Positions 10,059 through 59,495 of a DNA stretch of 64,000 bases are shown one piece after another (the stretch's first letter is position 1; each line of letters opens with the position of its first letter). A program made the translations under genes and the position numbers. Where the stretch lies: the NCBI GenBank assembly GCA_963702095.1, contig OY969706.1, forward strand, positions 2,592,001 through 2,656,000, read 5' to 3'. The notes below the pieces were generated by a model. It saw only the letters and a program-made list of their open reading frames with translations, searched no databases and was not told the origin of the DNA. The stretch is from Candidatus Bathyarchaeota archaeon (GTDB lineage Archaea; Thermoproteota; Bathyarchaeia; Bathyarchaeales; Bathycorpusculaceae).

Positions 10059-10233
10059 GTAGATCAAATTTGTCGGATATGCTTGAGGTTTGTTCCACAA
10101 CCAGCCAGCAACCCTTTCCGTTGTCGAACAAAAAACGCGGTTGCCTGCCAAGCCCACAGGAAGAAGATGAGCAAGGGCGGCTTTGCCTTCTTCTTAAACT
10201 AGAAAAAACAAAAGAGCCCAAATTTTCATCTAC
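10059..10233 (+). mobile_element. Dispersed MITE-like element, family 1 (GAA-stem type), copy A
   Basis: Ends gtagatcaaattt ... aattttcatctac (11/13 inverted); internal ccacaaccagccagcaacc...gaagaagatgagcaagggc...cttcttcttaaactagaaaaaacaaaa shared with 28222, 46071, 55715. Confidence 0.75.
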
Positions 10234-10352
10234 AAATAAGAAGAAGGGGAGAGCTCCTCAGAGCAACAGAAACGGGTTTGTTTTTTGGGAAAAAGTTATA
10301 GCGTAGGTGGACATTAAGCCTACAACAACACTCATTGGATGGTATTTGCTTT

Positions 10353-11435
10353 ATGGCTGAAATTCGTGTTGCTTTAATCGGCGTTGGCAACAGCGCTTCT
10401 GCTCTTGTCCAAGGAACCCAATACTACAAAGACGCAAAAGACGGAGAAACCGTCCCCGGCTTAATGCACGTGGTCTACGGCGACTACCACATCCGCGACA
10501 TACACTTCGTCGCCGCGTTTGAAGTTAACAAAGAAAAAATCGGCAAAGACCTCTCCGAGGCAATTTGGGTCAAACCCAACTGCTGCGAAAAATTCTCTGA
10601 CGTCCCACACCTCGGCGTCACCGTTTCACCCGCACCAATCCTCGACGGCGTCGCACCCCACATGCGAGAAGTCTTCAACGTCTACGACGGATCAGCAACC
10701 AAAGAATCCATCGTCCAAACCCTCAAAGACACCAAAACACAGGTCCTCGTCAACTACCTCCCAGTCGGCAGCCACGACGCAGTCCGATTCTACGCACAAT
10801 GCGCCATAGACGCAGGATGCGCATTCGTCAACTGCATGCCCGAATTCATCGGCAGCGACGCATCGGGTGAATGGCCTAAAAAGTTTGAGCAAGCCGGCTT
10901 ACCCGTCTTGGGCGACGACATCAAAAGCCAAGTCGGCGCAACCATACTGCACCGGCAGCTTGTGAGGCTCTGTTTGGACCGCGGAGTCATCGTTGACGAA
11001 ACCTACCAGCTTAACCTCGGCGGAGACACTGATTTCCAGAACATGACCGTGGAGGGCCGCCTCAAAAGCAAGCGCATAAGCAAAACCGAAGCCGTCACAT
11101 CCCTAGTCCCCTACGCTTTGCCCACACGCATCGGTCCCAGTGATTTCGTGCCGTTCCTTAAGAACAAAAAAATCTGCTACATCTCTTTGAAAGGTCGCAA
11201 ATTCGGCGACCGTCCCATAAACATCAGCGTCAAACTCGAAGTCGAGGACAGCCCAAACAGCGGCGGAGTCGTCATCGACCTTATCCGCGCTGCCAAAATC
11301 GCGTTGGACCGAAAAATCGCTGGTACACTGCTAAGCATGCCTTCATATGCCTTTAAGCATCCGCCCGTCCAAGTCCCCGACAACCAAGCCCGCCAATGGA
11401 CAGAAGAATGGATTGCAGGCAAACGCGAACGCTAA
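10353..11435 (+). CDS. ino1: myo-inositol-1-phosphate synthase
   Basis: GVGNSASALVQG, NYLPVGS, GDDIKSQVGAT, QLNLGGDTDF, DSPNSGG. Confidence 0.95.
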   Translation: MAEIRVALIGVGNSASALVQGTQYYKDAKDGETVPGLMHVVYGDYHIRDIHFVAAFEVNKEKIGKDLSEAIWVKPNCCEKFSDVPHLGVTVSPAPILDGVAPHMREVFNVYDGSATKESIVQTLKDTKTQVLVNYLPVGSHDAVRFYAQCAIDAGCAFVNCMPEFIGSDASGEWPKKFEQAGLPVLGDDIKSQVGATILHRQLVRLCLDRGVIVDETYQLNLGGDTDFQNMTVEGRLKSKRISKTEAVTSLVPYALPTRIGPSDFVPFLKNKKICYISLKGRKFGDRPINISVKLEVEDSPNSGGVVIDLIRAAKIALDRKIAGTLLSMPSYAFKHPPVQVPDNQARQWTEEWIAGKRER

Positions 11436-11516
11436 CTGTCCAGTTTCTTCTAAAATAACCTTTTATAGGTTACCTATACTATCTCCTTTTCAGAACACAC
11501 AGAAGGTACAGTTATT

Positions 11517-11936
11517 ATGGTTAAAGTGGAACAGTACGAAGTACCCGAAGGACTCTACTACTCAAAAGATTTTGCGTGGGCAAAAGTTGAAGGCGACAAA
11601 GTTCGAGTCGGCATAACAGATTACGCACAAAAATCCCTACGTGAAATCGTCTACGCTGAGCTTCCAAGTGCAGGGTCAGAAATCAGACAAAACGAGCCAT
11701 ATGGCACCCTCGAATCCGTCAAAGCAGTATCTGACCTCGTCGCACCCATAAGCGGCACAGTCCAAGAGATCAACGAAGAAGTCCAATCTAAACCCGAAAC
11801 CCTAAACGAAGACCCTTATGGCAAAGGCTGGCTCCTCATCGTTAAACCCAGCAACCTCCAAGCCGACCTCGCCAACCTACTGGACTTCGACAAAGCTGTA
11901 GAGTGGCATAAGGCTCAGTCAGCGGGCAAATGCTAA
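11517..11936 (+). CDS. gcvH: Glycine cleavage H protein (lipoyl carrier)
   Basis: VGITDYAQ, ESVKAVSD lipoyl-Lys, NEDPYGKGW. Confidence 0.93.
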   Translation: MVKVEQYEVPEGLYYSKDFAWAKVEGDKVRVGITDYAQKSLREIVYAELPSAGSEIRQNEPYGTLESVKAVSDLVAPISGTVQEINEEVQSKPETLNEDPYGKGWLLIVKPSNLQADLANLLDFDKAVEWHKAQSAGKC

Positions 11937-11946
11937 GGCGAAGCTG

Positions 11947-13293
11947 ATGGCACGCCGCATCATAATCGTGGGCGCCAACGCATCCGGCATCGAATCAGCA
12001 TCCGCCGCGCGCAAAAAAGACCGCACCGCAGAAATCACATTGATTACTCAGGAGAAAACCGCAGGGTACAGCCGCTGCGGATTGCCCTTTGTCATCGGCG
12101 GCAACATCAAAAGCTTCTCCGACCTTGTCGTTTATCCCCCAGCGTATTTCCAGATGCTTAAACTTGATTTGCGCTTGGAAACCACCGCCGCCGCAGTCAA
12201 CACCAAAGACAAAACCGTCACCGTCCAATCCAAAGACGGTCAAACCGAAACCCTCCCCTACGACGTCTTGGTCATAGCCACCGGAGCAGACTCGTTTATG
12301 CCTCCGATTAAAGGCAGAGAAAAACAGGGCATCCTCTCTTTGCGGGGCATTGAGGACGGCGAACGCATCGACGCCGCTGTTGCAGCAGGTGCCAAATCGG
12401 CGGTTATCATGGGTGCGGGTCTCATCGGCTTAGAGTTGGGTGTTGGCTTGATTGAGCGCGGCTTAAAAGTCACAATCGTAGAAATGCTCCCCCAGATACT
12501 GCCGCAGTTGCTTGACGCTGACATGGCTAAGCTGGTACAGGAGCATCTGGAAGGAAAAGGCATGCGGATTTTGCTTAACAAGGGTGTAGAGGAATTCTTA
12601 GGCGACGACCGCGTTACCGCAGTTAAAGCTGGCGGAGACATCATCGAAGCCGACCTCTTCATCAGCGCCTTTGGCGTGCGCGCATCTACCAAACTTGCCG
12701 CAGACGCAGGCATCCCGTTGGGCGAAACCCGCGCGATCAAAACCAACGCTCGAATGGAAACCGAAGTTAAAGACGTCTATGCCGTAGGCGACTGCGCCGA
12801 AGCCCCAAGCATCATCACCCACAAATGCACCTGTGCACAACTGGGCACCGTGGCGGTCCGCGAGGGCAAAGTGGCGGGTGCCAACGTAGGCGGCGGCTAC
12901 TCATTGTTCAGCGGCGTCTTGGCGTCGGCGGTTACACGATTATTCGATATTGAAGCAGGTAACACAGGTTTAACTGAAACCGCTGCAGCACGCAACCGCA
13001 TTGAAGTCATCACCGGCGCCATCAGCAGCAAAACCCGTGCCGACTACTTCCCAGGCGCTAAACCCATCAAGGTCAAGTTGGTCGTCGAAAAAGAAAGCCA
13101 ACGCATCATCGGCGCACAAGTTGTCGGAGGCGAAGAGGTCACCCAGCGCATTAACTGCCTGTCCTTTGCGATTCAAAAGGGCATGACGGTGCGTGAATTG
13201 GCTAAGGCGGATACGGCTTATGCACCGCCGCTCTGTGAAACTTGGGAGCCTATGGTGCTTGCCGCTGAAATGGTGCTTATGAAACTCCGCTAA
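11947..13293 (+). CDS. FAD-dependent NADH oxidase/CoA-disulfide reductase family protein
   Basis: YSRCGLP single redox Cys, ATG motif, GAGLIG, YAVGDC, AYAPP. Confidence 0.9.
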   Translation: MARRIIIVGANASGIESASAARKKDRTAEITLITQEKTAGYSRCGLPFVIGGNIKSFSDLVVYPPAYFQMLKLDLRLETTAAAVNTKDKTVTVQSKDGQTETLPYDVLVIATGADSFMPPIKGREKQGILSLRGIEDGERIDAAVAAGAKSAVIMGAGLIGLELGVGLIERGLKVTIVEMLPQILPQLLDADMAKLVQEHLEGKGMRILLNKGVEEFLGDDRVTAVKAGGDIIEADLFISAFGVRASTKLAADAGIPLGETRAIKTNARMETEVKDVYAVGDCAEAPSIITHKCTCAQLGTVAVREGKVAGANVGGGYSLFSGVLASAVTRLFDIEAGNTGLTETAAARNRIEVITGAISSKTRADYFPGAKPIKVKLVVEKESQRIIGAQVVGGEEVTQRINCLSFAIQKGMTVRELAKADTAYAPPLCETWEPMVLAAEMVLMKLR

Positions 13294-13423
13294 GCCCCTT
13301 TTTCCTTTTTACAACTTTATGAGCGTCCTATCCGCCAATAGGACATATCTTTCTTAGGATTTTTGTTTCTTGCTGTTTTCGGGCACCAACATACCCTTAA
13401 ATGCCACAACTCCCCAGCATCCC

Positions 13424-14233
13424 ATGTGGTTTTTGTTGCCTCAAACTCTGTCTCCAGACGCTAAAATCTCCGTCGCCGTCATCGCCATAGGAATCCTCAT
13501 ACTAGCAGCCGGCGGCTTCTTCTTACTCCTTAACCTAATCAACAATTTCCCAACTTACATGCCTCAACCCGTGGTTACCCAAGCCCGCAACTGGGCAGGC
13601 TACTTAGCCGCCAGCGACCTCGTAGACCCCGGTCCAAGCGTTGTTGCGGTCAATGGCTCTTGGACAGTGCCGGCGGTCAGCGACATTGGCTCCGACGCTT
13701 TTTCTGCCATTTGGGTTGGGGTCGGCGGCCAATTCGATAAAACTCTTATTCAGGCTGGAACTGAACAGGACTTCGTCGGCGGCGGACCCGTGTACTCCGC
13801 CTGGTACGAGATGTTGCCAGACAACTCCGTAACCATAGACGGCATAACCGTTTCCCCCGGAGACCGCATGGAAGCCCAAATCAGCTTAATCGACGCTAAC
13901 AGCAACCTTTGGTCCATCAACCTCATAGATGTGACCACTGGGCAGAGTTTTCAGCAGAACTTTACCTACACCTCCGAGCAGCTTAGTGCAGAGTGGATTA
14001 TCGAGCGCCCCCAAGTAAACAATCAACTCTCTGACCTAGCAAACTTCAGCCAACTAACCTTCACCGACTGCCACGCAACCATCGCCGAAAGAACCGGCAG
14101 TATCTCAGATTTTTCACATAGCGTCATCGAAATGGCTGCCCAAACTAGAAATAACCAATCCGTGCAACTAGTCAGCGTCTCCTCCCTCTCAAGCGACGGC
14201 ACACAGTTTACCGTCACCTACACCGCAGGGTAA
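13424..14233 (+). CDS. Membrane-anchored G1 family glutamic peptidase (eqolisin)
   Basis: N-terminal TM; NWAGY, WVGVGG, LIQAGTEQD (Gln), SAEWIIERP (Glu); exact start uncertain. Confidence 0.88.
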   Translation: MWFLLPQTLSPDAKISVAVIAIGILILAAGGFFLLLNLINNFPTYMPQPVVTQARNWAGYLAASDLVDPGPSVVAVNGSWTVPAVSDIGSDAFSAIWVGVGGQFDKTLIQAGTEQDFVGGGPVYSAWYEMLPDNSVTIDGITVSPGDRMEAQISLIDANSNLWSINLIDVTTGQSFQQNFTYTSEQLSAEWIIERPQVNNQLSDLANFSQLTFTDCHATIAERTGSISDFSHSVIEMAAQTRNNQSVQLVSVSSLSSDGTQFTVTYTAG

Positions 14234-14284
14234 TAGGCGGCGTTTGTTGCTCTCACGGATCGTCCCTTTCATGTTTGAAGGGCA

Positions 14285-14490
14285 AATTGTTTTTTTTCTT
14301 TATGTGGGTGTGGCGTTTCTCGGGATGCCCCAAGATTGGTTGAGGGGCGGTTGCTTTCTGGGTTTGCAACGTTTTTGTGCGCCTGTTTCGGTGTGGGATA
14401 TGCGTTTTCCTCCACACGCCCTGCATGGCGCCATGTTGAAACCGCTTCGGTGTGGATGTGAATGCATGTTACGTCTTTTTTGGGACTTAC
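14285..14490 (-). repeat. Dispersed element, family 3, copy 1
   Basis: Reverse complement aligns over ~200 nt with 39870-40075 (catgcattcac...tgtggag.aaaacgcata..ccacaccgaaacaggc...aagcaaccgc...cacataaaga). Confidence 0.85.
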
Positions 14491-14586
14491 AACCCATCAA
14501 AAGCAGCGATACAGTCGGATAGTGGGCAGCTTAAGATAGCCGGAGTTTCGAAAGTATTATATTGCAAGACTTAACAATAAGAAGCC

Positions 14587-14700
14587 ATGAAAAGGCGAGC
14601 CGGTTGGAAACTAAAACTTGTCTTCTTCCCCGCGATTTTAGTCATATTGATCGTTTGTTGGATCCCTAGCCTAACTGAAAAAAGGGGTAGGCAACATTGA
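14587..14700 (+). CDS. Putative 37-aa single-TM protein
   Basis: MKRRAGWKLKLVFFPAILVILIVCWIPSLTEKRGRQH; TATA-like tattatatt about 30 nt upstream; below the ORF-track cutoff. Confidence 0.4.
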   Translation: MKRRAGWKLKLVFFPAILVILIVCWIPSLTEKRGRQH

Positions 14701-14893
14701 AAACTATCTTTTGCCGCGTACTATAAGCGGGTAATCACTTGTTTGTCACCAAATCTGCCGCATTTGTCAACTGAAGGCTTTCCCCATTCAAGGCTTCATG
14801 TATTTGAAAAGAGGAACAAATGCTCTTTACCGGTGTTTGTTTTGGCAAAATTATTAAGTTACCGCTTACACTCTTTAGGGGTGTGTATGCTTC

Positions 14894-15262
14894 ATGAGTA
14901 AAGCTGAAGTCGCTGTGTCGTATGAGCCGTTCAAAGAAATCGTGATTATGGAGAAAACCCGCTTTAACGGTGCCGAAGAAATCGCCCGCTTCACCTCAGT
15001 CATTGCTGGAGGCAAGTTGGCTGGGCTGTATTGGGTGGACGGCGTCGTGTTCCTCTACTTTCCCTTAACCGCCTCAAACGTGGCTGTGGCACGGGAGTTG
15101 TTGGAGAAGCACCGTGTCTACTGGACGTATGTTGGTTACGCGTTGATGCCGCGGTATGCACCGACGATTGAGACGAAAGAAAAAATGATTGTGCCCGTCG
15201 TGGACATATCCAGCGACCCAATCCTCAAATCCGTGGCACAGTGGCTAAAAGAACAGCCCTAG
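14894..15262 (+). CDS. Conserved archaeal hypothetical protein
   Basis: 122 aa ORF abutting the riboflavin kinase start; protein-like composition. Confidence 0.75.
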   Translation: MSKAEVAVSYEPFKEIVIMEKTRFNGAEEIARFTSVIAGGKLAGLYWVDGVVFLYFPLTASNVAVARELLEKHRVYWTYVGYALMPRYAPTIETKEKMIVPVVDISSDPILKSVAQWLKEQP

Positions 15263-15661
15263 ATGGCGGCGGGTATGCCGCAGCTAATTTTTGAAGGCAA
15301 GGTGTTCTCTGGCAGAGGCGAGGGCAAACGCTTCGTCGGGTTGCCGTGGGTTAAGCGGCAGATCATGCAGAAAACAGGTTTTACCCCTTACGATGGTACC
15401 TTAAACTTGTGTTTAACTGGGGATTCAGTGGAGAAGAGGCGACAACTGGATCAGGCAAACGGGTCCGTGGTTGAGCCAGAAGCAGGTTTTTGTCCCGGCA
15501 TCCTCTTTAGAGGGTACATCGAAGGCTTAGAATGCGCAGTGATATTGCCCAAAGTCCCCAATTACCCCGTGGATATATTAGAAGTTGTTGCATCCCAAAA
15601 CCTGCGGTGCAGACTCGGGTTAGCCGACGGCAACACCGTGGCTGTGGCAGTTACTTTCTAG
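15263..15661 (+). CDS. ribK: CTP-dependent riboflavin kinase (DUF120)
   Basis: GKVFSGRGEG, GFTPYDGTLN, LEVVASQNLR. Confidence 0.9.
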   Translation: MAAGMPQLIFEGKVFSGRGEGKRFVGLPWVKRQIMQKTGFTPYDGTLNLCLTGDSVEKRRQLDQANGSVVEPEAGFCPGILFRGYIEGLECAVILPKVPNYPVDILEVVASQNLRCRLGLADGNTVAVAVTF

Positions 15662-17181
15662 GCGCTACCTGCTGGATGGATGCTAGACCTTTTTTGAAGT
15701 TGGCAATATAGTTGTCGAGGGCACCGTTTTTCTTTAGGTATTCGCCGTATTGGACCAGTGCTTTCATGGCGCGGGCGGCGTCTTCGGGGCTGCCAAAGCT
15801 TGGGACACAGAGGCGATCAAAGCGGCCGCGGGTGTAGAGCGCCATTTCGGTTTCGCCGATGTCCACCATCACGATGGGTTTAGTGTATTTGTGGCTAATC
15901 GCTGCGATGCCGTCGATGTATTTTTCACGTAGCCCAGGCATGTGGTGTAATCCTAGGAGGATTAGGCCTTGCATTTGGGGGTCTTGGAACATGATGTCGG
16001 CGGATATTTCGAATTGTTCGTCGGTGACGGAGCCTGTTAGGTCGACCGGATTGTGGGTGGCGGCGATGGAGAGGATTTTGCCTTCGGCTTTGAGTTGTTC
16101 GAATTTGCTGTCGGTTTCTTTGTCAAAGCGGTCCACGGTTAAGCCTTGAACTTCGAGTTCGTCGACAGTCATGACGCCGGGTCCGCCTGCGTCAGTTAAA
16201 ATGCCGATGTTACGTCCAATGGCAGGAGGCTGCATCGCCAATGCTTTGCCAATGTCAAAGAAGTCCTCCATGTTAAGGGCACGTATGACTCCGCATTGTT
16301 CAAAGGCGGCATCGTAGATTTTGTCGCTGCCCGCGATGGCGCCTGTGTGGCTGGCTGCTGCACGTGCACCCGCTGAGCTGCGGCCTGACTTTATAACGAC
16401 CACTGGCTTTTTGAGGGTAACCTTCTTGGCGATTTCGAGGAATTGCCGCCCGTCCTTGACGTCTTCTATGTAGAGCAAGATGACAGTGGTTTCTTTGTCA
16501 TGCATAAGGTAGGCGAGTATGTCGGATTCAGAGACGTCGCTTTTGTTGCCAAAACTTACGAATTTCGACACGCCCATCTGGCGCCCAGTGAGGTAGTCCA
16601 GCGCGGCACAGCCAAAGGCGCCACTCTGAGTGACCATGGCTATGCTGCCTGGCAGCGGACGAGGCGTAGCCACCACTTCTTCGCCTGTGGTCAAAGTCTT
16701 GGTTTCAGGCAAAAACAGGGTGTCAATGCCGCTTTTGGAGTAGTAGACGCCTAGGCAGTTGGCCTAAGAGTCGGATGCCGCCTTTTTTGGCTATGGCGAT
16801 AACTTGGTCTTCTAATTCTTTGTTGCCGACTTCTTTAAAGCCCGCAGTGATGATGACCGCTGTCTTCACATTTTTTGTAACGGCTTCCTCCATTACGGAG
16901 GCAACGTACTTGGCTGGAACAATAATAACTATCAAATCGATTTCGTTGGCGGGAACCTTGCTTAGGGATGGGTAGCATCTAAAGCCCAGTATGCTGTCTT
17001 CGCCAGGGTTCACTGGGTAGAGTTCGCCTTTGTAGACGTCGCGTTGCTTGTTAGTTGCCAGGTTCTTAAAGATGACGTAGCCGGCTTTGTCCACTTTTTT
17101 TGTAGCGCCGATGACTGCGACTGAGTGAGGATTGAAGAATGCATCCAGTTTCTGTAGTGATTCATCCATAGCGTGCACCAA
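15651..17181 (-). CDS. acdA: Acetate--CoA ligase (ADP-forming) alpha subunit, frameshifted near 16762
   Basis: FFNPHSVAVIGA, YPVNP, ITAGFKE; the conserved GPNCLG is split (GGC C AAC TGC); QSGA, SHTG phospho-His, NPVDLTG. Confidence 0.9.
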
Positions 17182-17245
17182 CGTATTTCCGCATAGACGT
17201 ACAAGCCATCTTTTATGTCTTACTTATACAAAAAGTAGTTTTCGG

Positions 17246-18112: not shown

Positions 18113-18163
18113 CAGTTTTACTCGAATGCAAATTAGGCTTTAACCTAATAAGAGTTGATTCTA

Positions 18164-19234: not shown

Positions 19235-19268
19235 AATATAGAAGAGAGGTTTTGTTTAAAAGCATTAA

Positions 19269-19601
19269 CTACAAGAGCTTGTTAAAAAAACAGCTATATT
19301 CTCCTGTGTGGCAAGCGGGACCCGTCTGCTCAACGACATAGAGCAGCGAATCGTAGTCGCAGTCAGTAGAGACGGAGATGATTTTTTGGGTGTGCCCGCT
19401 GGTTTCGCCTTTAACCCAGAGTTCATTGCGGCTGCGGCTCCAATAAGTAGCTTTTTTGGTTTTGAGTGTGAGTTCTACAGCTTCTTTGTTGGCATATGCC
19501 TGCATCAGCACCGTTTTGGTTTTGGCGTCTTGGGTTATGACTGGGATAAGCCCGTTACCCTTCACAAAATCGAGTTTTGCAAGTAATTCTTGAGGTGTCA
19601 T
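19269..19601 (-). CDS. hisI: Phosphoribosyl-AMP cyclohydrolase
   Basis: [28 protein letters not shown]. Confidence 0.95.
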
Positions 19602-20401: not shown

Positions 20402-20403
20402 GT

Positions 20404-27772: not shown

Positions 27773-27876
27773 AGCGGGGTGGGGTAGCCAGGATTAACCC
27801 GCTGGGCTCATAACAGCGCCAACGTGTGCTGTGAGATACCCAGAGATCAGTAGTTCAAATCTACTCCCCGCTACCA
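27773..27876 (+). tRNA. Initiator tRNA-Met (CAT) with a 25-nt canonical 37/38 intron (27813-27837); CCA encoded
   Basis: A1:U72 acceptor AGCGGGG/CCCCGCT, anticodon stem CTGGG/CCCAG with 3 G-C pairs, perfect bulge-helix-bulge (CTCA/TGAG helix, TAA and ATA bulges), GTTCAAATC T-loop. Confidence 0.96.
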
Positions 27877-27987
27877 ACAAAAGCACTTACTTTTGCTGTT
27901 TACAAATTGGCATTATTTGTCCAAATTGCCGAATGTGCCAAACACATCTAATGGTGCTTGTGAGCCAAAGTTATCCAATCGTTCGCG

Positions 27988-28120
27988 ACTGCTTGTTTTG
28001 GCTTCCACAACCAGTCTGCAACCTAGAGCCGACGCAGACGCCAAAAAGCAATCTGCCGCACAATCGGCTGGTTGTTGTTGTGTATAGGGCGTTTTCTGCA
28101 ACAACAACTATAGAAAAAAA
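27988..28120 (+). repeat. Dispersed element, family 2 (GTT-stem type), copy E
   Basis: 28007-28119 is the exact reverse complement of 30667-30779; similar to 59322-59470. Confidence 0.9.
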
Positions 28121-28125
28121 GTACA

Positions 28126-28169
28126 GCCCATAACCAGAGACCAGCAGTTCAATCTACTCTCCGACGCCA
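28126..28169 (+). repeat. Degenerate copy of the 3' half of tRNA-iMet
   Basis: gcccataaccagagaccagcagttcaatctactctccgacgcca vs spliced tRNA gctcataacccagagatcagtagttcaaatctactccccgctacca. Confidence 0.7.
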
Positions 28170-28221
28170 ACCAATTTTTGACCTCTGTTTTGCCCCTTTA
28201 TCAATAAACAAAAGGTTCTTT

Positions 28222-28376
28222 GGTTCTGTTTGAGGAATCAGCCACAACCACTCATCAATGCGTTTTTGTTGCAGAACGCAAAGCACAACCACCTACATAG
28301 CCCATAGGAAGATGATGAGTAAGGGCGCGACCCTCTTCTTAAACTAGAAAAAACAAAAAAGAGTCAATTTTGATCT
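28222..28376 (+). repeat. Dispersed element, family 1, copy B
   Basis: gccacaacca...gttgcagaacgcaaagcacaa...cccataggaagatgatgag.aagggc...cttcttaaactagaaaaaacaaaa...aattttgatct. Confidence 0.85.
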
Positions 28377-28536
28377 GAGGGTGTAAAGAGCGAGGGCTAT
28401 ATGGGAAATCGCAGCCGATCGTTTATGGATATTGTCTGCTAATTACGTCTCAGCCCTAATTTAACCGTAGATTGCGGTAAAAGTAAATAAACAAGTTGAC
28501 CTAGACAAACTACAAGACGCGCATGGGTGAATTATC

Positions 28537-30568: not shown

Positions 30569-30666
30569 ACCAAAAAATAGTCTCTCACTTTTGAGAGAGC
30601 TTTCCTCTTTTATTAACAATCATTTTTCGATCAATCTAATGGTCTGTGGTTCATTATGTGGCTCGG

Positions 30667-30800
30667 TTTTTTCTATAGTTGTTGTTGCAGAAAACGCCCT
30701 ATACACAACAACAACCAGCCGATTGTGCGGCAGATTGCTTTTTGGCGTCTGCGTCGGCTCTAGGTTGCAGACTGGTTGTAGCGTACTCCGCAAGCAGAAC
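30667..30800 (-). repeat. Dispersed element, family 2, copy F
   Basis: 113-bp perfect inverted match to copy E. Confidence 0.9.
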
Positions 30801-30950
30801 AGCAAATGTGAGCCTGAAAAATTAAAGGGGTTGCTGTTTAAATCGTTTGTAATCTTTTAGCTATCACAATTATTTAACTAACTGATAAGCTTCACAGTAG
30901 CATAGCTACTTTTGATTTTCAGGTATTAATGAATTTTTGTAGGAGGTGAA

Positions 30951-39750: not shown

Positions 39751-39772
39751 ACCCAACTTTCCTTTTTTATTA

Positions 39773-40094
39773 GTAGATCAAAATAATTGTTTGTTTGGGG
39801 TTGGTTGCGGTGTGTCTGTTTGTTTAGCCATGCCGTTGCCAGCTTGCATTGTGCTGTTGGTTGCCTCGCTAAAAAAAACAAATGATACATGCATTCACAC
39901 CACATCCCGACCGCCCCTGCATGGAGCCATGTACCCCATGTGGAGAAAAACGCATATACCACACCGAAACAGGCACCAAAAAATGTTACAATCACAAAAA
40001 GCAACCGCACTCAGTTGCAGTCCTGTGGGCAATTCTAAAACTCTCACACTCACATAAAGAGAGAAAAAAACAACAGCAGAAACTTTCGATCTAT
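39773..40094 (+). mobile_element. MITE-like element with family-3 interior and family-1-type TIRs
   Basis: Left gtagatcaaaata, right aactttcgatctat; interior 39870-40075 homologous to 14285-14490. Confidence 0.65.
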
Positions 40095-40096
40095 TG

Positions 40097-41008
40097 CTAA
40101 ATAAACTCTAAGTCTTTTTGATAGGGCAAACCTGCTCGAGCACCCATCGCCGTCACGGATTTGGAGGCGACAAAGTTGCCAAGTCTGCCGCATTCAGCGA
40201 GGGTTCTGTTGTGGGTTAAGCCGTAGAGGAACCCTGCGTTAAAGGCGTCTCCTGCGCCTGTCGTGTCGACCACGTTGACTTTGAAGGCTTGTATGGAGAG
40301 TTTTTCTTCTCCGTCCGTGATGTAGCAACCTTTGGCTCCGAGTTTCACGGCGACGACTTTGACGCCGGCACTGAGCAGCAGTTCGGCGCCTTTGGGGACG
40401 TCGGATTCGCCTGTTAAAAGTTCAAGCTCCACTGCGTTTGGCATCATAATGTAGCTGTTCTGGATTATGGGTTCGATAGCGGCAAAACCTTTCTGTGCAT
40501 AGAGTGAGCCAGGGTCGAAGCTAAGTTTGACGCCCTCAGGTAGGAAGCTGAGCAGTTTCTTCTGGGTTCGAAACGATTTCTCCCCGACAAAAGAGGACAG
40601 GTGCAAAAAATCTGTTTGGAAAACATAGTTAGCCTGTAATTCGCGGAATTCGATGCTGTCATTGACGCCTGAATTGATGTAGAGTGCTCGTGCGCCTTTT
40701 TTGTCTACGAATCCGAGGCAGACGCCGCTTTTGCCCTTGGATGCGTGGATAATGCCTTCGGTGTCGACGCCCTCGGTTCTAAAGCAGTCGATTTGGAGTT
40801 GGCCCTGGTGGTCGTCGGCGACTTTGCCGATGAACCCCACTTTGCAGCCCAACCGTGCCAAAGCGACCGTGGTGTTGGCTGCTGAGCCACCGCATGCTTC
40901 GGTGTAGTCATGGATGAAACTCTCTTCTTCAGCGCCCGCTATCTTGTCGACTTTTAGCAGTGTGTCGACGTTGAGTGCTCCGAAACCGATTACGTCAAAT
41001 TTGGTCAT
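40097..41008 (-). CDS. PfkB family carbohydrate/nucleoside kinase
   Basis: GGSAAN..VALARLG, SFDPG, PN..E, VDTTGAGDAFNAGF. Confidence 0.93.
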   Translation of the reverse strand: MTKFDVIGFGALNVDTLLKVDKIAGAEEESFIHDYTEACGGSAANTTVALARLGCKVGFIGKVADDHQGQLQIDCFRTEGVDTEGIIHASKGKSGVCLGFVDKKGARALYINSGVNDSIEFRELQANYVFQTDFLHLSSFVGEKSFRTQKKLLSFLPEGVKLSFDPGSLYAQKGFAAIEPIIQNSYIMMPNAVELELLTGESDVPKGAELLLSAGVKVVAVKLGAKGCYITDGEEKLSIQAFKVNVVDTTGAGDAFNAGFLYGLTHNRTLAECGRLGNFVASKSVTAMGARAGLPYQKDLEFI

Positions 41009-54046: not shown

Positions 54047-54181
54047 ATTGAGAACCTCTGTAAAGGTTTACCTCTAAACTTTCTGACAATGTTTTTAAAC
54101 CTTTCCAGATTTCTTATGCAAAAGTCATGGGGCAGTTAGAGATATGCAAGTTTTAAAAAACTAATGTAAAAGAGAAGTGGA

Positions 54182-54955
54182 CTACAGATAACCCAGCGTA
54201 TTGAGGATTTTTTTAACCGAAAGGTAAGCTTTGTTGTCGTTTGGCAACTCTAAAAGGGATTCGCCGTCGAGAACAAACTGGTCTAATTGCTCGTCCGCCT
54301 TGATTTTACCCAAATATTTGAATTTTAACTCTTCCTCTGCCTGCTTACCCAGTTCTGAGGGGAAACGGTAACCGCCTACTAAGTAAAAGTTTTCGAATTT
54401 CATGTCAACTTCTTTAGCAATTTTGTAAGCACGTCTGACATGATCTTGCGACTTTTTGGAGTGGTCTAATATGTCAAAGATGTCGCTGACGTTACTGGTT
54501 ATGCGGCGGTTTAGGTTTTCCAGCCCAGCAGGAGAATCGACGATTACGTACTTGTATGTTTTAGTCAAGCTTTCCAAGGCGCCTTTGAGTGCGCTGTTAG
54601 GCATGCAGTAGCATCCTTCCACCCATTTGTTGCCCACAGCCATAAAATCGAAATGTTTGGTTTCATAGAGCCCCTTTTCCCAAATACGAGCTTCGATACG
54701 CTGAGTTGGGGGAACGCCGACTGTGGTGCCGCCAGTTTCGATGAAGGTGCTTACAATGAGGTCTGCTATGGTTGATTTACCTGCTTCTTTGAGGTCCACA
54801 CCCAACATTTCACCAAGGTTTTGGTCAGGGTCAGCATCAACCAATAGGATGGGAGATTGATTGGATTCGATGAATGCCTTTGCCATTAAGGCGGTGAAAC
54901 TGGATTTTCCGGTTCCACCACGACCGACAGTAACAAGAGTTTTCATATCTAACAA
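54182..54955 (-). CDS. cooC: CO dehydrogenase/ACS nickel-insertion ATPase (CooC/AcsF)
   Basis: GRGGTGKS, DADPD.NL, GCYC, DSPAGLE. Confidence 0.9.
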   Translation of the reverse strand: MLDMKTLVTVGRGGTGKSSFTALMAKAFIESNQSPILLVDADPDQNLGEMLGVDLKEAGKSTIADLIVSTFIETGGTTVGVPPTQRIEARIWEKGLYETKHFDFMAVGNKWVEGCYCMPNSALKGALESLTKTYKYVIVDSPAGLENLNRRITSNVSDIFDILDHSKKSQDHVRRAYKIAKEVDMKFENFYLVGGYRFPSELGKQAEEELKFKYLGKIKADEQLDQFVLDGESLLELPNDNKAYLSVKKILNTLGYL

Positions 54956-55081
54956 ACCTCAAAGAGAGTTTGCTATTTTTTAAAGCAAAGCTCGCATATA
55001 TTGTCTATGGTTCTTAACCCTAACTTTTGACCTGTTTTTAGCTACACTTAGCACTGCAAAAGGGTAATTTAAACCAAAAAA

Positions 55082-55654
55082 TCAAGGCGTTTGTTCGCCA
55101 GATCTGCCAATACGCGCCGCATCATCTTTAATGCCCTGCAATTGTTCAGCAGTCGGTTTACCCCTAATGTCGCCCAGTCTGCCTTGAGTGCTGTATTCTT
55201 TTTGACCATGGAATTCACTTAGAACATACCATTCAGCAACAACACTAAAGCCAATGTGATCAAAGTATTGCCCAATATCTTTGCCGACGGGAGTTGCCTC
55301 AGCGATTCCCGTGTGAGGACCTGAGTAGGTAACGAAAACTATGGCTTTTTTACCTTGATATTTTGGGGCGCCGAGCTTGATTTTTCCGTTTTCTCGGTAG
55401 TAATTGAATTTTTTCTTAAGAAAAGCAGTTATCTGTTCGGGAGGATGCCAAGAATGGGAAGGGCAGCCTACGCAAACTAGATCGTAGTCGAAAAAGTCCA
55501 TGTTTTCGGCTTCCTCAGGCTTCTTTAGGGTTACGTGGAGGTTGGCTTCTTCTAGTCCCTGCTTTATGGCGTTGGCTACTTTCTCTGTGTTACCGGTTTT
55601 TGACCAGTAGATTATCAGTGCAGTTTCAAGTTTCTTAAATTCATATGGCTTCAT
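55082..55654 (-). CDS. Flavodoxin domain protein
   Basis: YWSKTGNTEKVA, YDLVCVGCP. Confidence 0.85.
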   Translation of the reverse strand: MKPYEFKKLETALIIYWSKTGNTEKVANAIKQGLEEANLHVTLKKPEEAENMDFFDYDLVCVGCPSHSWHPPEQITAFLKKKFNYYRENGKIKLGAPKYQGKKAIVFVTYSGPHTGIAEATPVGKDIGQYFDHIGFSVVAEWYVLSEFHGQKEYSTQGRLGDIRGKPTAEQLQGIKDDAARIGRSGEQTP

Positions 55655-55714
55655 TGTTGGTTCGCCTGATTAGTCATGCTATGCTGTTTCTGTTACATGT
55701 TGTGCTTTATAATA

Positions 55715-55890
55715 GTAGATCAAAATTTGGGCTTTTTTGTTTTTTTAGTGTTAGATGAAAGCAGAGCAGCCCTTGCTCTTCTTCTTCCTATGGACTGTGT
55801 GGGCATTGTGCTTTGCGTTCTGCAACGGATTTGGGTTGCTGGCTGGTTGTGGAGCAAACTACAAGCAGAACCGAAGAAGCTTTGACCTAC
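55715..55890 (-). mobile_element. Dispersed MITE-like element, family 1, copy C
   Basis: Ends gtagatcaaaattt ... agctttgacctac; 176 bp, colinear with 175-bp copy A. Confidence 0.78.
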
Positions 55891-55897
55891 GGTTAAA

Positions 55898-56045
55898 TGG
55901 AAGATTGCAATTGGGGGCGGTTGCATTTGGGGTTTGCATGTGATTGCTGTTTTTGCAGTTAGTATGTTGCTAACTTTATTGGTGCGATTGCGTCGAAAAA
56001 ACGTGGATTGCATGGGTAGCCACAGCATGTTGGGCTCTCAAACAA
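55898..56045 (-). repeat. Dispersed element, family 3, copy 3 (diverged), abutting copy C
   Basis: aagattgcaattgggggcggttgcatttggggtttgca matches 14332-14368 aagattggttgaggggcggttgctttctgggtttgca. Confidence 0.6.
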
Positions 56046-56082
56046 CAAACCATAAGAACGCACACAAACAACAAGAACTTGT

Positions 56083-57078
56083 ATGACAAAACTGCTCTTG
56101 GTCGCCTGTATAGTAACCTTGTGTAGTCTTTTAGCAGTCCCTCTGATGACGCTACCATTGCCTACTCTTGAGGATAAACCCCAAACGACACCACAAAGCA
56201 TCCAACAGCCAACTCCACCACCTCCTGTTGAGTCAACTCCTACACAAAGCCCGTCACAGCCGCCTAAAAGCACACCCACAAGTACGTCTCAGACCACCCC
56301 CTATCCCTATCAACCCCCTACACCCCCAAATGCTCAACGACCGATTAACCGCAGTCTAAGTGAGGCGGTGGGGAACGCCACTGACTACTTGGCACAAACA
56401 AAGGAGCCCTATGCTCTGCTGATGCTTGATGTAATTCATCGGCGTTTTGGGATAGACGAATTTAACGATTCTTTACAGGTTTTTGATGCACAACTGGCGA
56501 CTAACCGACCGGACGCGCCTATTCAACGAGTATTTCGCCGTATTGCCGATTATTCTAACCCAGCGTTGCAGCCTACAGATTTCTATGTGGTACACTTCGA
56601 CCTTGACTGCGTGACGGTCCCCGCTCTGTATTCTGACCGAATAAACCTGCCTGACGATTATTCGTCAACCTTCACAAGCGCCGTTGGCAACGGAGGCTAC
56701 TTATTGACACATGCATTACTGGCGACTATTTGGTTTAAAGACAACCACTATAACCTGGGTTTCTCAGATAATTCCATGCAATATCTTTACCGTGCAAACT
56801 CTGCATTAATCGGCGGCGACTCAGTGGTTACGGACCTCGAATTGGAAGCCGCCGCGTTCCTCTACTTGGCGGGGCAAGGCGAACTGGTTAACGACGCCTT
56901 CGTCCAACACGTCATTGCAGCCCAGAATTATGACGGCGGCTGGTCTTCCTCAAGCGACTCTGCGGATAGCTCATTTTGGCACACCTCAGTTTTGGGACTG
57001 ATGCTATTACTGCATGTGGAATATCCTGCTTCATATTATCCGCCGATGCTGGCGTCTGCACCAGATTACAATGGATAA
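56083..57078 (+). CDS. Exported protein with Pro/Thr/Gln linker and alpha-helical prenyltransferase-like repeat
   Basis: Signal/anchor peptide, PTQ-rich linker, YLLTHALL and QNYDGGW motifs. Confidence 0.7.
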   Translation: MTKLLLVACIVTLCSLLAVPLMTLPLPTLEDKPQTTPQSIQQPTPPPPVESTPTQSPSQPPKSTPTSTSQTTPYPYQPPTPPNAQRPINRSLSEAVGNATDYLAQTKEPYALLMLDVIHRRFGIDEFNDSLQVFDAQLATNRPDAPIQRVFRRIADYSNPALQPTDFYVVHFDLDCVTVPALYSDRINLPDDYSSTFTSAVGNGGYLLTHALLATIWFKDNHYNLGFSDNSMQYLYRANSALIGGDSVVTDLELEAAAFLYLAGQGELVNDAFVQHVIAAQNYDGGWSSSSDSADSSFWHTSVLGLMLLLHVEYPASYYPPMLASAPDYNG

Positions 57079-57191
57079 AAACCATGCAAAAGCACCAAGT
57101 ATTCCGCATCACCCAAAGATGGTTGGTCGTTAATTGAATAACAAATTTCAAATATGAGCCCCCGAACATAAGACGACAGGTGCAGTTAACA

Positions 57192-58265
57192 ATGGGTAAC
57201 GATTACTTTAGCAAGAAACTTGAACCAATCAAAGTTACCAAACAAAAACCAATCTCACAGTTACTGAAAGAAATGAGCAAAACCGCGTATCAAGGCCGCA
57301 AACTAGGCGAAGCCGTCGACGTATGGGAAAACATGATTAAAGAAAAAGACATCGTCATCGCAATGGGTTTCGCGGGTTCCATGTCTACGGCGGGTCAGTG
57401 GACAATCGTCAACTGGCTCATCGAAAACCGTTTCATCGACGTCTTAGTCTCTACTGGCGCAAACGTTTCTGAGGACATCGTGGACGCAATGGGACTTGGC
57501 TACTATCAGGGCAGCCACATGGTTGACGACTCACAATTGCTCCACGACGATGTTAACCGCTACTACGATGTTTACGGCAAAGAAACTGACTACCGCAAAA
57601 TGGAAGATGTAGTAACAGACTACGTTATGACCTGTAAGGAAGAGTACATGTACACTTCAGCAGAGTTCCTAAATGGACTCGGCAGGTACCTTGGAAAGAA
57701 AAAGATTCCCGCTATCTCTGCGGTTGCAGCAGCCAACGGCGTCCCAATTTTTAGCCCCGCTATGGTTGACAGTGCATACGGCGAAACCTTCCTCCTTGCA
57801 AAGAACAAAGGCCACAACGTCCACATCGACAGCGTCAAAGAATTCGACCAATTCGTCAGTATAGGCACAAAAACCAAAGAAGTCGGCGTAATCTACATCG
57901 GCGGAGGCGTCCCCAAAGACCTAACCCAACTCATCGCTATATCCGTCTCTCCGATGACTGAGGACCAAGGAGTTAAAGGCAGAAAAGGCGGCTTACGCAA
58001 GAGCATACAAGAATACTATTACCCCCATAAATATGCCATCCAAATCACCACTGACTCCCCGCAATGGGGCGGCTTAAGCGGATGCACACTTGAAGAGGCG
58101 ATTAGCTGGGGTAAAATCAACAGCCAAACCGGCACCCGCGCGGTCTGCTACTGCGACGCAACCATCGCTTTGCCGCTGATATGCCACGCACTGGCTGAAC
58201 GCGTCCCTGAGAAGCGGAAGGGTCCAGACATGAGCTGGATCTTCAAAGACATGCCAAAAGCGTAA
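57192..58265 (+). CDS. Deoxyhypusine synthase-like protein (long paralog)
   Basis: YQGRKLG, STGAN, IGGGVPKD, GGLSGCTLEEAISWGK, DATIALP. Confidence 0.9.
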   Translation: MGNDYFSKKLEPIKVTKQKPISQLLKEMSKTAYQGRKLGEAVDVWENMIKEKDIVIAMGFAGSMSTAGQWTIVNWLIENRFIDVLVSTGANVSEDIVDAMGLGYYQGSHMVDDSQLLHDDVNRYYDVYGKETDYRKMEDVVTDYVMTCKEEYMYTSAEFLNGLGRYLGKKKIPAISAVAAANGVPIFSPAMVDSAYGETFLLAKNKGHNVHIDSVKEFDQFVSIGTKTKEVGVIYIGGGVPKDLTQLIAISVSPMTEDQGVKGRKGGLRKSIQEYYYPHKYAIQITTDSPQWGGLSGCTLEEAISWGKINSQTGTRAVCYCDATIALPLICHALAERVPEKRKGPDMSWIFKDMPKA

Positions 58266-58275
58266 GGAAAAATTT

Positions 58276-59244
58276 TTATTTTTTCCTATTTTTATTTAAT
58301 CGGTCAATTAGGGCGCTTGTCATTACGGGCATGACCATTGTGGCGTCGCCTTCGATCATCGTCATCTTTGCTTTTTCGTTGATTTTGCCCCAGCTTACTG
58401 CTTCGCGGGGTCGGGCGCCGCTTAGGCTTCCATCCCACTCATCTGCAGTAGAAATGTAGACGACGTAGTCTAAGCCGTCTTTGAATTGGTTCCACCAGAT
58501 CGTGTGGTGCTTGCTGATGCCTCCGCCGACGATGAGGGCACCGGTTTTTTTGGCGTCGAAGACGAGGTTGTTTAGGTATTCTTCGTCTTTTAGGATGTTT
58601 ATGCGGAAGTCTTTGTGGTCTTGGCTAAAGAACCAGTATTGGTAACCGACTGAGCCGTCGGTTGGACCGGGGACGATTATGGGTATGTCGTTTTTGGCTG
58701 CCCAGTAGAGGATAGAGGACTCGTTGCAGCAGCGTAGTCCGATTTCCCGGTTGATTTCGGCGGTTGAGAATTCTTTTTTGCCCTCACTGTAGAGTTGTTC
58801 GAGCATGGGAATGATTTTTTTCTCGATTACGATGCCGTAGCTGTCGTTTGGCACCAGCACGTTGCCCAAGCGGTTGACGCCTTCTTGATGCAGTTTGCTG
58901 TCGCTCATGATGAAGCTGCCTTTGTAGTAGTCTCTCCAGCACCGGGCGACATCGTGGTCGAGTGTGCCGCAAGTGGTGATGATGACGTCTACGAGTTTGC
59001 GTTTCACCAGCTCCCGGATGACGCCTCTTGTGCCGGTGGCGATGATGTCGGCGGTGAATGAGAGGAATTTGACGCATTGCTTGTCCTCTATCATAGCCTC
59101 CATTATGTTGACGCCTGTGGCAAGTTTACCAGCGGTGAAACCCCACGCAGACTCCATCTGACCCACCAGTTCGTCGACGGTCATGTTTTCTGTGAACTGG
59201 TAATCTTTCACTGCGATTTTGTGTGCTTCACGCGTTTTAGGCAT
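58276..59244 (-). CDS. dys: Deoxyhypusine synthase
   Basis: GFTAG, TTCG.LDHD, NRLGN, GGGISKHH, DGSLSGARPREAVSWGK, GDAT. Confidence 0.94.
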   Translation of the reverse strand: MPKTREAHKIAVKDYQFTENMTVDELVGQMESAWGFTAGKLATGVNIMEAMIEDKQCVKFLSFTADIIATGTRGVIRELVKRKLVDVIITTCGTLDHDVARCWRDYYKGSFIMSDSKLHQEGVNRLGNVLVPNDSYGIVIEKKIIPMLEQLYSEGKKEFSTAEINREIGLRCCNESSILYWAAKNDIPIIVPGPTDGSVGYQYWFFSQDHKDFRINILKDEEYLNNLVFDAKKTGALIVGGGISKHHTIWWNQFKDGLDYVVYISTADEWDGSLSGARPREAVSWGKINEKAKMTMIEGDATMVMPVMTSALIDRLNKNRKK

Positions 59245-59321
59245 ATACCTTGTCTCCGATGCAGAGGTTAAACAAGTAAGGAGATAAATAGGTTTAGAAA
59301 AACCGTCGCTTATTCAGGCGT

Positions 59322-59495
59322 TTGTTTTTCTATTGTTTGTTGTTGCTGAGGATCTCCTATGCACAACAACAACCAGCGGTTTGTGCCGTCGATTGCTTTT
59401 GGCGAAATGCGTCTGTTTTAAGCTGCCTGTTGGTTGTGGCGGATTCCGCAAGCAACCCCGCAAGCAGAAGCGTCTGTTGCTCTGCTGCCACCTAC
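59322..59495 (-). repeat. Dispersed element, family 2, copy G
   Basis: Reverse complement gcttgcggaatccgccacaacca...gccaaaagcaatc...gctggttgttgttgtgcatagg...gcaacaacaa.caatagaaaaac. Confidence 0.82.

Follow-up and report, generated by a model that had tools for sequence, protein, structure and literature searches.

A family of about 180 short intergenic repeats, probably a small mobile element, in a Bathyarchaeota archaeon and its relatives

In Candidatus Bathyarchaeota archaeon (GCA_963702095.1) we found a family of about 180 copies of a non-coding repeat of about 150 bases, which lies between the genes of this archaeon and of its relatives and is probably a small mobile element. We consider it somewhat better than evenly likely that these are old, genus-wide, non-coding interspersed repeats, closest in behaviour to the bacterial MITE, ERIC or REP-type elements. 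An nhmmer search of the 2.94 Mb genome gave 182 matches (99 on the plus and 83 on the minus strand), 171 of them near full length, with near-random spacing (coefficient of variation 0.93) and no strand pattern along the chromosome. Matches to our covariance model, R1, place the family in 32 of the 65 genomes of the genus, with counts per genome from zero to at least 47, and BLAST against 12 genomes from other families of the order gave no match. No bias in orientation to the neighbouring genes was found (co-directional gaps, 47 sense vs 33 antisense; convergent gaps, 50; divergent gaps, 41). Overlaps of more than 30 nt with ORFs called on a crude map occur in 38 of the 171 copies; as a group, we judge these calls to be spurious. 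The absence of orientation bias, the presence or absence of copies at given loci, the inverted-repeat-like flanks on about one third of the copies and the scarcity of TATA-like boxes argue for a non-autonomous repeat and not for RNA genes. The first-pass annotation had left the choice between an ncRNA and a REP/MITE-like element; the second fits, given some 180 dispersed copies, near-random spacing, a patchy distribution with variable copy number, locus polymorphism and flanks, and the first lacks support.

The window, that is the whole stretch of 64,000 nucleotides (64 kb) analysed on contig OY969706.1, holds seven copies at the places first proposed (nhmmer E ~1e-35 to 2e-42), and R1 recovered these seven and nothing further in the window:

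10063..10233, plus strand: copy A, GAA/TTC stem (nhmmer E 9.8e-42; R1 140.4 bits)
10071-10220, plus strand: core of copy A
10049..10070, plus strand: left flank of A, with the GTAGATCAAA motif, inverse of the right-flank motif (read from the sequence)
10221..10273, plus strand: right flank of A, the inverted motif and then a long extension with the GAGCAACAG end (extension profile match at genome 2602203-2602279)
27976..28134, plus strand: copy B, GTT/AAC stem (nhmmer E 1.4e-40)
28207..28378, plus strand: copy C, GAA-type 5' arm and shortened 3' arm (nhmmer E 1.7e-38; R1 125.2 bits)
30652..30812, minus strand: copy D, GTT/AAC stem, its 3' 111 nt overwritten by B-like sequence
46053..46225, minus strand: copy E, GAA type, its stem interrupted by two U.U mismatches (nhmmer E 9.7e-39)
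55714..55889, minus strand: copy F, GAA type (nhmmer E 2.1e-42)
~55705-55727 and ~55879-55900: inverted-repeat-like flanks on both sides of F (read from the sequence and scored)
59310..59476, minus strand: copy G, GTT/AAC stem (nhmmer E 8.5e-36), with a GAGCAACAG-type motif directly upstream (extension profile match at genome 2651464-2651529)

What is conserved is a core of about 150 nt, made of a 5' block conserved as sequence (CTGCTTG .. CCACAACCAG .. GCAAC), a partly variable, A+C-rich middle, a 3' hairpin of 3-base period, with fixed G-C pairs and, between these, A-T pairs that can flip, and a 3' tail, CTAGAAAAA. The scaffold said to be common to the seven copies was borne out in alignment (5' CTGCTTG..CCACAACCAG, CA-rich middle with CAAAA, 3' stem and TAGAAAAA tail). 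The two stem types were also borne out, GAA/TTC in the copies at 10059+, 28222+, 46071- and 55715- and GTT/AAC in those at 27988+, 30667- and 59322-, so that the original labels A-D and E-G do not follow coordinate order. Genome-wide, the 171 near-full-length copies divide into 94 GAA/TTC, 51 GTT/AAC and 26 intermediates. At its poorly conserved columns the middle has an A+C content of 63%, vs 50% in the flanks, and A+C exceeds 0.5 in 147 of the 171 copies, which hints at a strand-specific, single-stranded form.

The 3' hairpin is maintained across three stem types through A-U to U-A flips, with a G-C pair staying at every third position; the third type, GAT/ATC, was found in other species (as GATGATG/CATCATC, in G015 and G075), the stem of G005 is GAAGAAGAAGG/CCTTCTTCTT and that of G046 a perfect (GAA)n/(TTC)n. 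Among 72 copies in an alignment that was itself fitted to the structure, both sides change in six of the nine pairs of the 3' stem (e.g. AU 40, UA 28, other 2), 80.7% of the cells are paired vs 72.1% in shuffles, and the covariation score of 0.213 (0.093 in shuffles) was reached by 0 of 500 shuffles, figures to be read with the two stem types being linked haplotypes, so that cells are not independent events, and with a partner slid by three columns still being 56% paired because of the 3-base period. Variable stem positions within the GAA type showed no covariation (TT 16, AT 7, AA 6, TA 2 of 33), and neither, in the 72 copies, did the 5' hairpin (pair 19-30: UA 25, AU 5, other 40). That the two arms change together is borne out, and the claim that structure is kept rather than sequence stands for the 3' stem, there only between stem types and between species, and falls within the GAA type and for the 5' hairpin. 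The 8-base complementarity behind a proposed two-state switch exists in the GTT type only, and both of its segments are invariant.

Outside the core, some copies carry a longer extension, of about 50 nt. The GTAGATCAAA-type motif stands in sense at 5' ends and inverted at 3' ends, with at most two mismatches in 25 and 25 of 146 copies vs 0 and 1 for the control orientations, and the control orientation gave 0 matches at one mismatch or fewer. A second repeat in the window, unrelated to this one, has the same end motif. A full-length profile reached the left flank in 55 and the right flank in 48 of 158 copies. That flanks on about a third of the copies are far less conserved than the core would be unexpected if they were transposase sites, and this counts against the reading we favour.

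Comparison of orthologous places showed insertion polymorphism in both directions. Copy A is present in G000 and G007, and the same place is empty in G075, G005 and G072, to which homology resumes at ~10281, beyond the right flank of A; in the reverse case, a copy of G007 lies at a place empty in G000 and G046. Copy G is absent from the deoxyhypusine synthase locus of five relatives, with synteny breaking at that point. Gene conversion between copies was also found: B and D share 113 nt that are 100% identical in inverted orientation, D past its first 38 nt has the same base as B at 106 of 107 positions, and the G007 ortholog of D is of the GAA type, i.e. the other stem type, so D was overwritten by a B-like copy, with a change of stem type. 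The copies are old: nearest-neighbour identity has a median of 78%, and for only 8 of 171 copies does any partner reach 95%, which leaves recent transposition without support and again counts against our reading.

We hold it possible, though with well under an even chance, that the core is instead a cis element used by the host, at transcript ends or in transcript stability or as a site for a chromosomal protein, and is kept by purifying selection locus by locus, as bacterial REP and ERIC sequences are thought to be. Such a role overlaps with our preferred explanation, since use may follow after a repeat has spread. Between the orthologous A copies, identity is 105 of 135 positions (78%) for the core and 88% for the 3' stem with the tail, vs 30 of 68 (44%) for the right flank and an unalignable left flank, so that in this one pair the core changes more slowly than its surroundings. 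Copy E has a counterpart at the corresponding place in G075 (107/140 identical, 76%) and a 17-nt remnant at the same junction in G005. Host use is further consistent with very uneven column conservation (90-99% in the stems and CAAAA, 30-50% in the loops), with a middle A+C-rich even where columns are poorly conserved, with the scarcity of degenerate copies (9 of 182 matches between E 1e-10 and 1e-2), and with a tail that is a T run on the reverse strand and, in 83 of the 171 copies, faces a gene's stop codon (median distance 52 nt). However, the same side faces start codons 88 times, which amounts to no preference, the orthologous pairs measured are only two, gene conversion could keep cores alike without selection, and detection is biased toward copies with the conserved columns kept. 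One segmental duplicate points the same way, since the element is ~84% identical (counted by eye) vs 83.5% for the whole 556-nt duplicated block, a similarity that speaks for no extra constraint in that duplicate, and is a point against our own explanation too.

It seems far less likely that the copies are individual small RNA genes or cis-regulatory leaders, each transcribed forward from its own promoter with a TATA box in the left flank about 30 nt upstream of the core. Copies A and F do have a TATA-like stretch ~31-36 nt upstream of CTGCTTG, conservation sets in sharply at this core start, the middle is A+C-rich on one strand only and compensating changes keep the 3' stem; yet a TATA-like hexamer at -46..-30 occurs in only 9 of 135 anchored copies (0 of 34 of the GTT type), a promoter leaves the same motif inverted at the other end unexplained, and no oligo-T terminator follows the core on the forward strand. 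Moreover, the folds of single copies do not surpass those of shuffles (five copies at z -0.9 to -1.8, the sixth at +0.1), and the counts of G.U vs A.C (206 vs 184) favour no clear strand. None of 4227 Rfam models matched the window at gathering scores, nor any of seven loci at E up to 1. The GAA and GTT subfamilies can be aligned as homologs, and none of the outcomes named beforehand as refuting the proposal was seen.

Flanking direct repeats of 6-9 bp were found at no offset (6-mers, 862 real vs 875 control), and exact 8-mer direct repeats at the assumed boundary in 0 of 135 copies. We could link no transposase to the family; the DDE_3, DDE_Tnp_1, TnpB, Y1_Tnp, RVT_1, IS1595 and IS110 models have no match in the genome, and the Y2_Tnp search, whose control matched nowhere, carries no weight here. 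The missing target duplication and the missing transposase both count against our explanation. Three IS6-like (DDE_Tnp_IS240) genes are present, one of which was examined and has a SWIM finger, and none of the three shares its ends with the repeat.

A descent from such an IS6-family insertion sequence, as a MITE whose inverted ends would be the core start GGTTCTGCTTG and the outer end of the long extension, ..CAACAGA.CC, strikes us as improbable. According to a review of IS6 (PMC7986276), the ends of such elements measure 15-20 bp, are tipped by a G dinucleotide and contain cTGTt and caaa motifs, and the family includes MITEs of 227 and 336 bp. The two candidate ends do look like GG..CTGTT, and the sole repeat copy of G032 is ~1.2 kb from an IS6-like gene, but the caaa part is missing, the G032 gene has no second flanking copy, no such ends lie within 1.5 kb of the IS6-like genes of the studied genome, whose shared identity is only 66% over 475 nt, and 8-bp direct repeats show no excess at any offset. 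Across genomes, IS6-like genes occur in 5 of 15 genomes with at least 10 repeat matches and, above the curated cut-off, in 20 of the other 50, with the repeat-rich G014 and G075 having no IS6-like match and G049 having seven and zero repeat copies. Movement of the core as single-stranded DNA by an HUH-type enzyme, as in palindrome-associated elements derived from IS200/IS605 or in REP with RAYT, with two subterminal hairpins as recognition sites, is likewise a slim prospect: the core lacks inverted ends and target duplication, has hairpin-like segments near both ends that are alike in the GTT type, and the end of a deletion in G000 lies 11 nt away from the 5' edge of E, but Y1_Tnp and TnpB have no match in the studied genome, G005, G007 and G014 and are present in relatives with few or no copies, replication-related strand bias is absent and the 5' hairpin does not covary.

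Under a mobile, non-autonomous repeat, copies would be inserted by an enzyme acting in trans, and this enzyme or a host protein may recognise the 5' block and the 3' hairpin by fixed G/C positions and helical shape, in single-stranded DNA, a cruciform or RNA. Resident copies might then persist by constraint on the core, or owe their similarity to occasional gene conversion.

Among known systems, the repeat has in common with Rfam RNA families a conserved hairpin with compensating changes, but matches none of the models. Like REP / BIME with RAYT transposases, it is abundant, intergenic, hairpin-forming, old and free of target duplications. REPs, however, are 20-40 nt against a core of ~150 nt, and no Y1-type gene is present here. 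Size class, non-coding character and hundreds of copies are shared with MITEs, including those of the IS6 family (PMC7986276), and with the Correia elements of Neisseria. Also MITE-like are the polymorphism at orthologous places, the inverted-repeat-like ends that some copies have and the sharing of an end motif with an unrelated repeat; unlike MITEs, the family lacks target duplications of at least 6 bp and a matching autonomous element, and its ends are less conserved than its interior. ERIC / IRU are orphan, non-coding intergenic repeats of enterobacteria, of ~130-150 nt and in both orientations, and are not known to have a mobilising enzyme. Our family resembles them in that respect and in size class, intergenic position, both orientations, copy number varying greatly between related species, and an imperfect palindromic structure conserved beyond neutral DNA. 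It differs from them in being archaeal, in carrying extra inverted-repeat-like flanks on about one third of its copies, and in having, in place of one long palindrome, a 5' block conserved in sequence and, apart from it, a 3' hairpin of 3-base period.

The seven copies listed in the first-pass annotation are real, and they belong to an undescribed family of small, non-autonomous, structured intergenic repeats, a general kind of element that is already known. A profile built from A1, the alignment of the seven window copies, recovered each of them with E values of 1e-35 to 2e-42, and R1, the covariance model of the family, found the same seven copies as its sole members in the window. The shared scaffold described earlier was borne out, and the stem types assigned to the copies had to be corrected, as listed here with the earlier start positions in brackets.

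10063-10233 (+), copy A (10059), GAA type
27976-28134 (+), copy B (27988), GTT type
28207-28378 (+), copy C (28222), GAA type
30652-30812 (-), copy D (30667), GTT type
46053-46225 (-), copy E (46071), GAA type
55714-55889 (-), copy F (55715), GAA type
59310-59476 (-), copy G (59322), GTT type

Across the whole genome (G000, one contig of 2,937,366 bases, 46.8% G+C, with the window at 2592001-2656000) the profile search gave 182 matches, 173 with E of at most 1e-10 and 9 weaker; 171 of the 182 are near-full-length copies with a size of ~150-280 nt, and their stem motifs are GAA/TTC in 94, GTT/AAC in 51 and intermediate in 26. These ~180 copies, each 150-280 nt long, take up ~1% of the 2.94-Mb genome. 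Spacing between copies is near random (CV 0.93), every type of gap is occupied, co-directional gaps show no significant bias (47 sense, 33 antisense), and no replication-strand bias is visible along the chromosome in 12 genome bins. R1 matched in 32 of 65 genomes of the genus, half of those sampled, with counts per genome from 0 to at least 47, the latter in six genomes, and BLAST found no repeat in 12 genomes from other families of the same order. Among named public records, those in which a conserved 17-mer recurs within a single record are Bathyarchaeia MAGs, which makes Bathyarchaeia a more probable lineage than an ammonia oxidiser; lone 17-mer matches in bacterial records were discounted as being at chance level (~140 expected by simple arithmetic). 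Viral contigs held 15 exact 17-mer matches, yet only one weak, partial R1 match (21.7 bits), and the plasmid sequences searched gave no match. The copies are old, with a median pairwise identity of 60% and a median nearest-neighbour identity of 78% among the 171, only 8 of which have a partner at 95% identity or more. At orthologous places the repeat is present in some genomes and absent in others.

The core of the repeat spans ~150 nt, with a sharp onset of conservation at (G)TTCTGCTTG and an end after CTAGAAAAA. Its 5' block, CTGCTTG.GG-N6-CC.CAACCAG, is near-invariant; the middle is rich in A+C (72% as a whole, 63% where column identity is under 60%, with 50% in the flanks for comparison), and in the 3' hairpin every third position is occupied by G in the 5' arm and by C in the 3' arm, with A-T pairs in either orientation between them. 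Consensus folds gave the same two hairpins on either strand. Single copies fold no better than shuffled sequences: forward-strand z values lie between +0.1 and -1.8, and reverse-strand values between -0.1 and -1.8 apart from one exception that reached -3.2. The core is non-coding: 66 of the 171 copies have an open frame through it in the forward direction and 116 of the 171 in the reverse, which composition explains. Coding potential was rejected because the reverse-strand excess is attributed to low A content, and a change from GAA to GTT would moreover be non-conservative.

The 3' hairpin is well supported, and the claim that both of its arms are exchanged together holds, since 6 of the 9 pairs of the stem vary on both sides in 72 copies aligned with R1. 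In these copies 80.7% of stem cells are paired against 72.1% in shuffles, and the covariation score of 0.213 against 0.093 was reached by 0 of 500 shuffles, figures to be read with the alignment itself having been fitted to the R1 structure. The stem types also behave as linked haplotypes, with positions on the same arm covarying as strongly as pairing partners, and sliding the partner by 3 columns still leaves 56% of stem cells paired. Mutual information over the 171 copies was discarded as a ranking of pairs, since it is dominated by subfamily linkage and relatedness inflates the statistic. Stronger support than the 72-copy statistic comes from other species of the genus, examined with one representative copy per genome in ~30 genomes: their stems are GTT/AAC or GAA/TTC, among the latter perfect stems of 10 bp in G005 and G046, and a third version, GATGATG/CATCATC, occurs in G015 and G075, with hybrids also seen. 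The hairpin therefore persists through flips of its A-T pairs, with its G-C pairs unchanged. The broader proposal that structure is kept over sequence stands for the 3' stem between types and between species; it does not extend to variation within the GAA type, whose variable stem positions do not covary and most of whose copies carry two U.U mismatches, nor to the 5' hairpin, where a single variable "pair" shows no covariation (UA 25, AU 5, other 40 of 71).

One window locus points to a way in which stem types are exchanged. Beyond its first 38 nt, copy D matches copy B at 106 of 107 positions and is of GTT type, and its counterpart at the orthologous locus of G007 belongs to the GAA type; the D locus has switched stem type by gene conversion and not by point changes. 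The stretches 28007-28119 and 30667-30779, parts of B and D, are 113 nt long, 100% identical and inverted, and they bracket copy C together with a 594-aa ORF that has no Pfam match. This identity fits a recent gene conversion, or an inversion, between both copies.

Resident copies offer a view of constraint. At locus A, common to G000 and G007, the core is identical at 105 of 135 positions, the 3' stem and tail at 45 of 51, the right flank with its extension at 30 of 68 and the downstream promoter at 51 of 53, with the left flank unalignable; copy E and its G075 counterpart agree at 107 of 140 positions and have in common an unusual ACATT.T within the variable part. Taken with the uneven conservation of columns and the scarcity of degenerate copies, the comparison suggests that resident loci retain the core, on two orthologous pairs and by a detection that favours well-kept copies. 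There are hints that the core is under constraint; gene conversion is an alternative cause of its similarity at resident loci.

The outer parts of the family are less uniform. A GTAGATCAAA-type motif lies in sense orientation at the 5' side of 25 of 146 copies and inverted at the 3' side of 25 of 146 (at most 2 mismatches; 0 and 1 in controls), with both sides carrying it in 7 of the 146, and a full-length profile extended into the left flank in 55 of 158 copies, into the right in 48 and into both in 28. About a third of copies per side thus have an inverted-repeat-like flank and the majority have none; the core itself is not bounded by inverted repeats. In ~20 copies an extra extension of ~50 nt ends in GAGCAACAG, and at locus A homology to three element-free genomes restarts a few bases past the end of the extension, which is therefore part of the inserted unit at that locus. 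One GTT-type copy in G007 ends directly after its A run, and near copy E a G000 deletion reaches to within 11 nt of the 5' edge; these differing ends show a family with heterogeneous outer parts. Mismatched flanks served as control for direct repeats of 6-9 bp, which were in no excess at any left offset, and an exact 8-mer duplication at the assumed boundary was found in 0 of 135 copies. In each of the 7 copies that carry both flank motifs, a TA stands two to four bases beyond the motifs. A TA target duplication of the IS630-like kind was nevertheless dropped, given that this TA lies within a conserved TATTTAAC-like stretch, that a longer extension continues beyond it and that DDE_3 is absent. 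A role of the flank extension as outward promoter was also set aside, the downstream gene being co-oriented in only 12 of 24 cases.

Like MITEs, the family is small, non-coding, multi-copy and polymorphic between genomes; the searches of G000 found neither a target-site duplication of 6-9 bp nor an autonomous element with the same ends. Models for DDE_3, DDE_Tnp_1, the TnpB zinc-ribbon, Y1_Tnp, RVT_1, IS1595 and IS110 gave no match in G000, and the control of the Y2_Tnp search matched nowhere, which left that search uninformative. Self-comparison of G000 yielded 23 repeat pairs of at least 400 nt with no multi-copy repeat among them, and a 2.9-kb duplicate beginning at a half copy (genome 197822 and 988056) proved to be a segmental duplication and not an autonomous element. 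IS6-like genes (DDE_Tnp_IS240) do occur, at these positions on G000 C1.

1962817-1963947, IS6-like gene
~1161960-1162340, IS6-like gene
1195199-1195612, IS6-like gene

One of these that was examined combines an N-terminal SWIM finger with DDE_Tnp_IS240, and two that were compared are mutually diverged and have no recognisable inverted ends. The IS6 review PMC7986276 describes ends with a GG tip, cTGTt and caaa motifs and 8-bp direct repeats. Both candidate ends of the repeat, the core start and the end of the outer extension, contain a GG..CTGTT-like part, a slight likeness to those ends that would speak for an IS6-family MITE. However, the caaa part is missing from the candidate ends, 8-bp direct repeats are absent (0 of 135), and the IS6-like genes of G000 do not have ends of the repeat type. 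Across the genus the repeat and the IS6-like genes do not go together, with IS6-like matches in 5 of the 15 genomes that have at least 10 repeat matches, matches above the curated cut-off in 20 of the other 50, and none in G014 and G075. In G032, an IS6-like gene adjoining the sole repeat copy was discounted, no second copy lying on its opposite side.

Y1_Tnp and TnpB had no match in G000, G005, G007 and G014, and Y1_Tnp scored above cut-off in 19 other genomes of the genus; Y1/TnpB genes exist in the genus, but outside the repeat-rich genomes. Compared with REP sequences and their RAYT, and with IS200-IS605-derived elements, the absence of target duplication is consistent, and of the subterminal hairpins the 3' one is supported here and the 5' one is without covariation. 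Structured non-coding RNA genes with their own promoter and terminator could draw on the 3' stem covariation between types and species, a statistic inflated by copy relatedness, but a TATA-like hexamer at -46..-30 is present in only 9 of 135 copies and the forward strand has no oligo-T past the core. An Rfam search returned no match.

We hypothesise, as a conjecture that we consider unlikely, that in a Bathyarchaeia lineage the core is a host-maintained structural element whose putative reader protein would follow the G or C at every third hairpin position and tolerate A-T flips, that it was spread by an enzyme outside the transposase families searched, and that selection keeps it at orthologous loci from species to species. 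Were this true, it would parallel in archaea the REP/RAYT relationship, with a new protein as the partner, and if the core is selected it would mark a new protein-nucleic acid recognition system. Bathyarchaeia are abundant archaea, mostly uncultured, and the family affects assembly, annotation and intergenic comparisons. It offers a natural experiment of three stem versions (GAA/TTC, GAT/ATC, GTT/AAC) for one hairpin, and a documented archaeal case of gene conversion among dispersed copies. In the literature searched, no paper connected Bathyarchaeia, Thaumarchaeota or Nitrososphaera with MITEs or small repeats.

Several further features lie beside the copies or elsewhere in the window. A tRNA-Met (CAT) at 27773-27876 (+) encodes its CCA and is interrupted by a 25-nt intron at 27814-27838. 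Within the window ARAGORN called no tRNA; in other genomes it found intron-less tRNA-Met orthologs (G005 and G007) and an odd 101-nt tRNA (G072). A degenerate second tRNA-Met 3' half at 28134-28173 (+) begins at most 14 nt past copy B, which is therefore placed between two direct copies of the tRNA-Met 3' half, an arrangement resembling the borders of an integrated element, which would since have shrunk to ~260 nt. Next to copy E, 46226-46300 (-) holds a gene remnant of ~24 codons; the small gene is complete in G075 (~125 codons by reading), and ~330 nt are missing in G000, with the break 11 nt from the 5' edge of E. A second repeat family of ~335 nt is also present.

39764-40100 (+), second repeat family
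14300-14480 (-), second repeat family

Its end motifs are also of GTAGATCAAA type, its interior (ATGGAGCCATG .. CACACCGAAACAGGC .. CACATAAAGAGAG) differs from that of the main family, and related copies lie at 930523-931075 and 2864734-2865279 of the genome. Just upstream of copy G, the stretch 59481-59630 matches three G044 contigs at 76-77% and is possibly yet another repeat family. In the whole genome GTAGATC was counted 89 times over the two strands, where base composition predicts ~377, and avoidance of GATC is suggested. Finally, 1432-1731 and 2112-2411 form a tandem 300-nt duplicate of 99% identity that sits within two neighbouring minus-strand ORFs of 218 aa.
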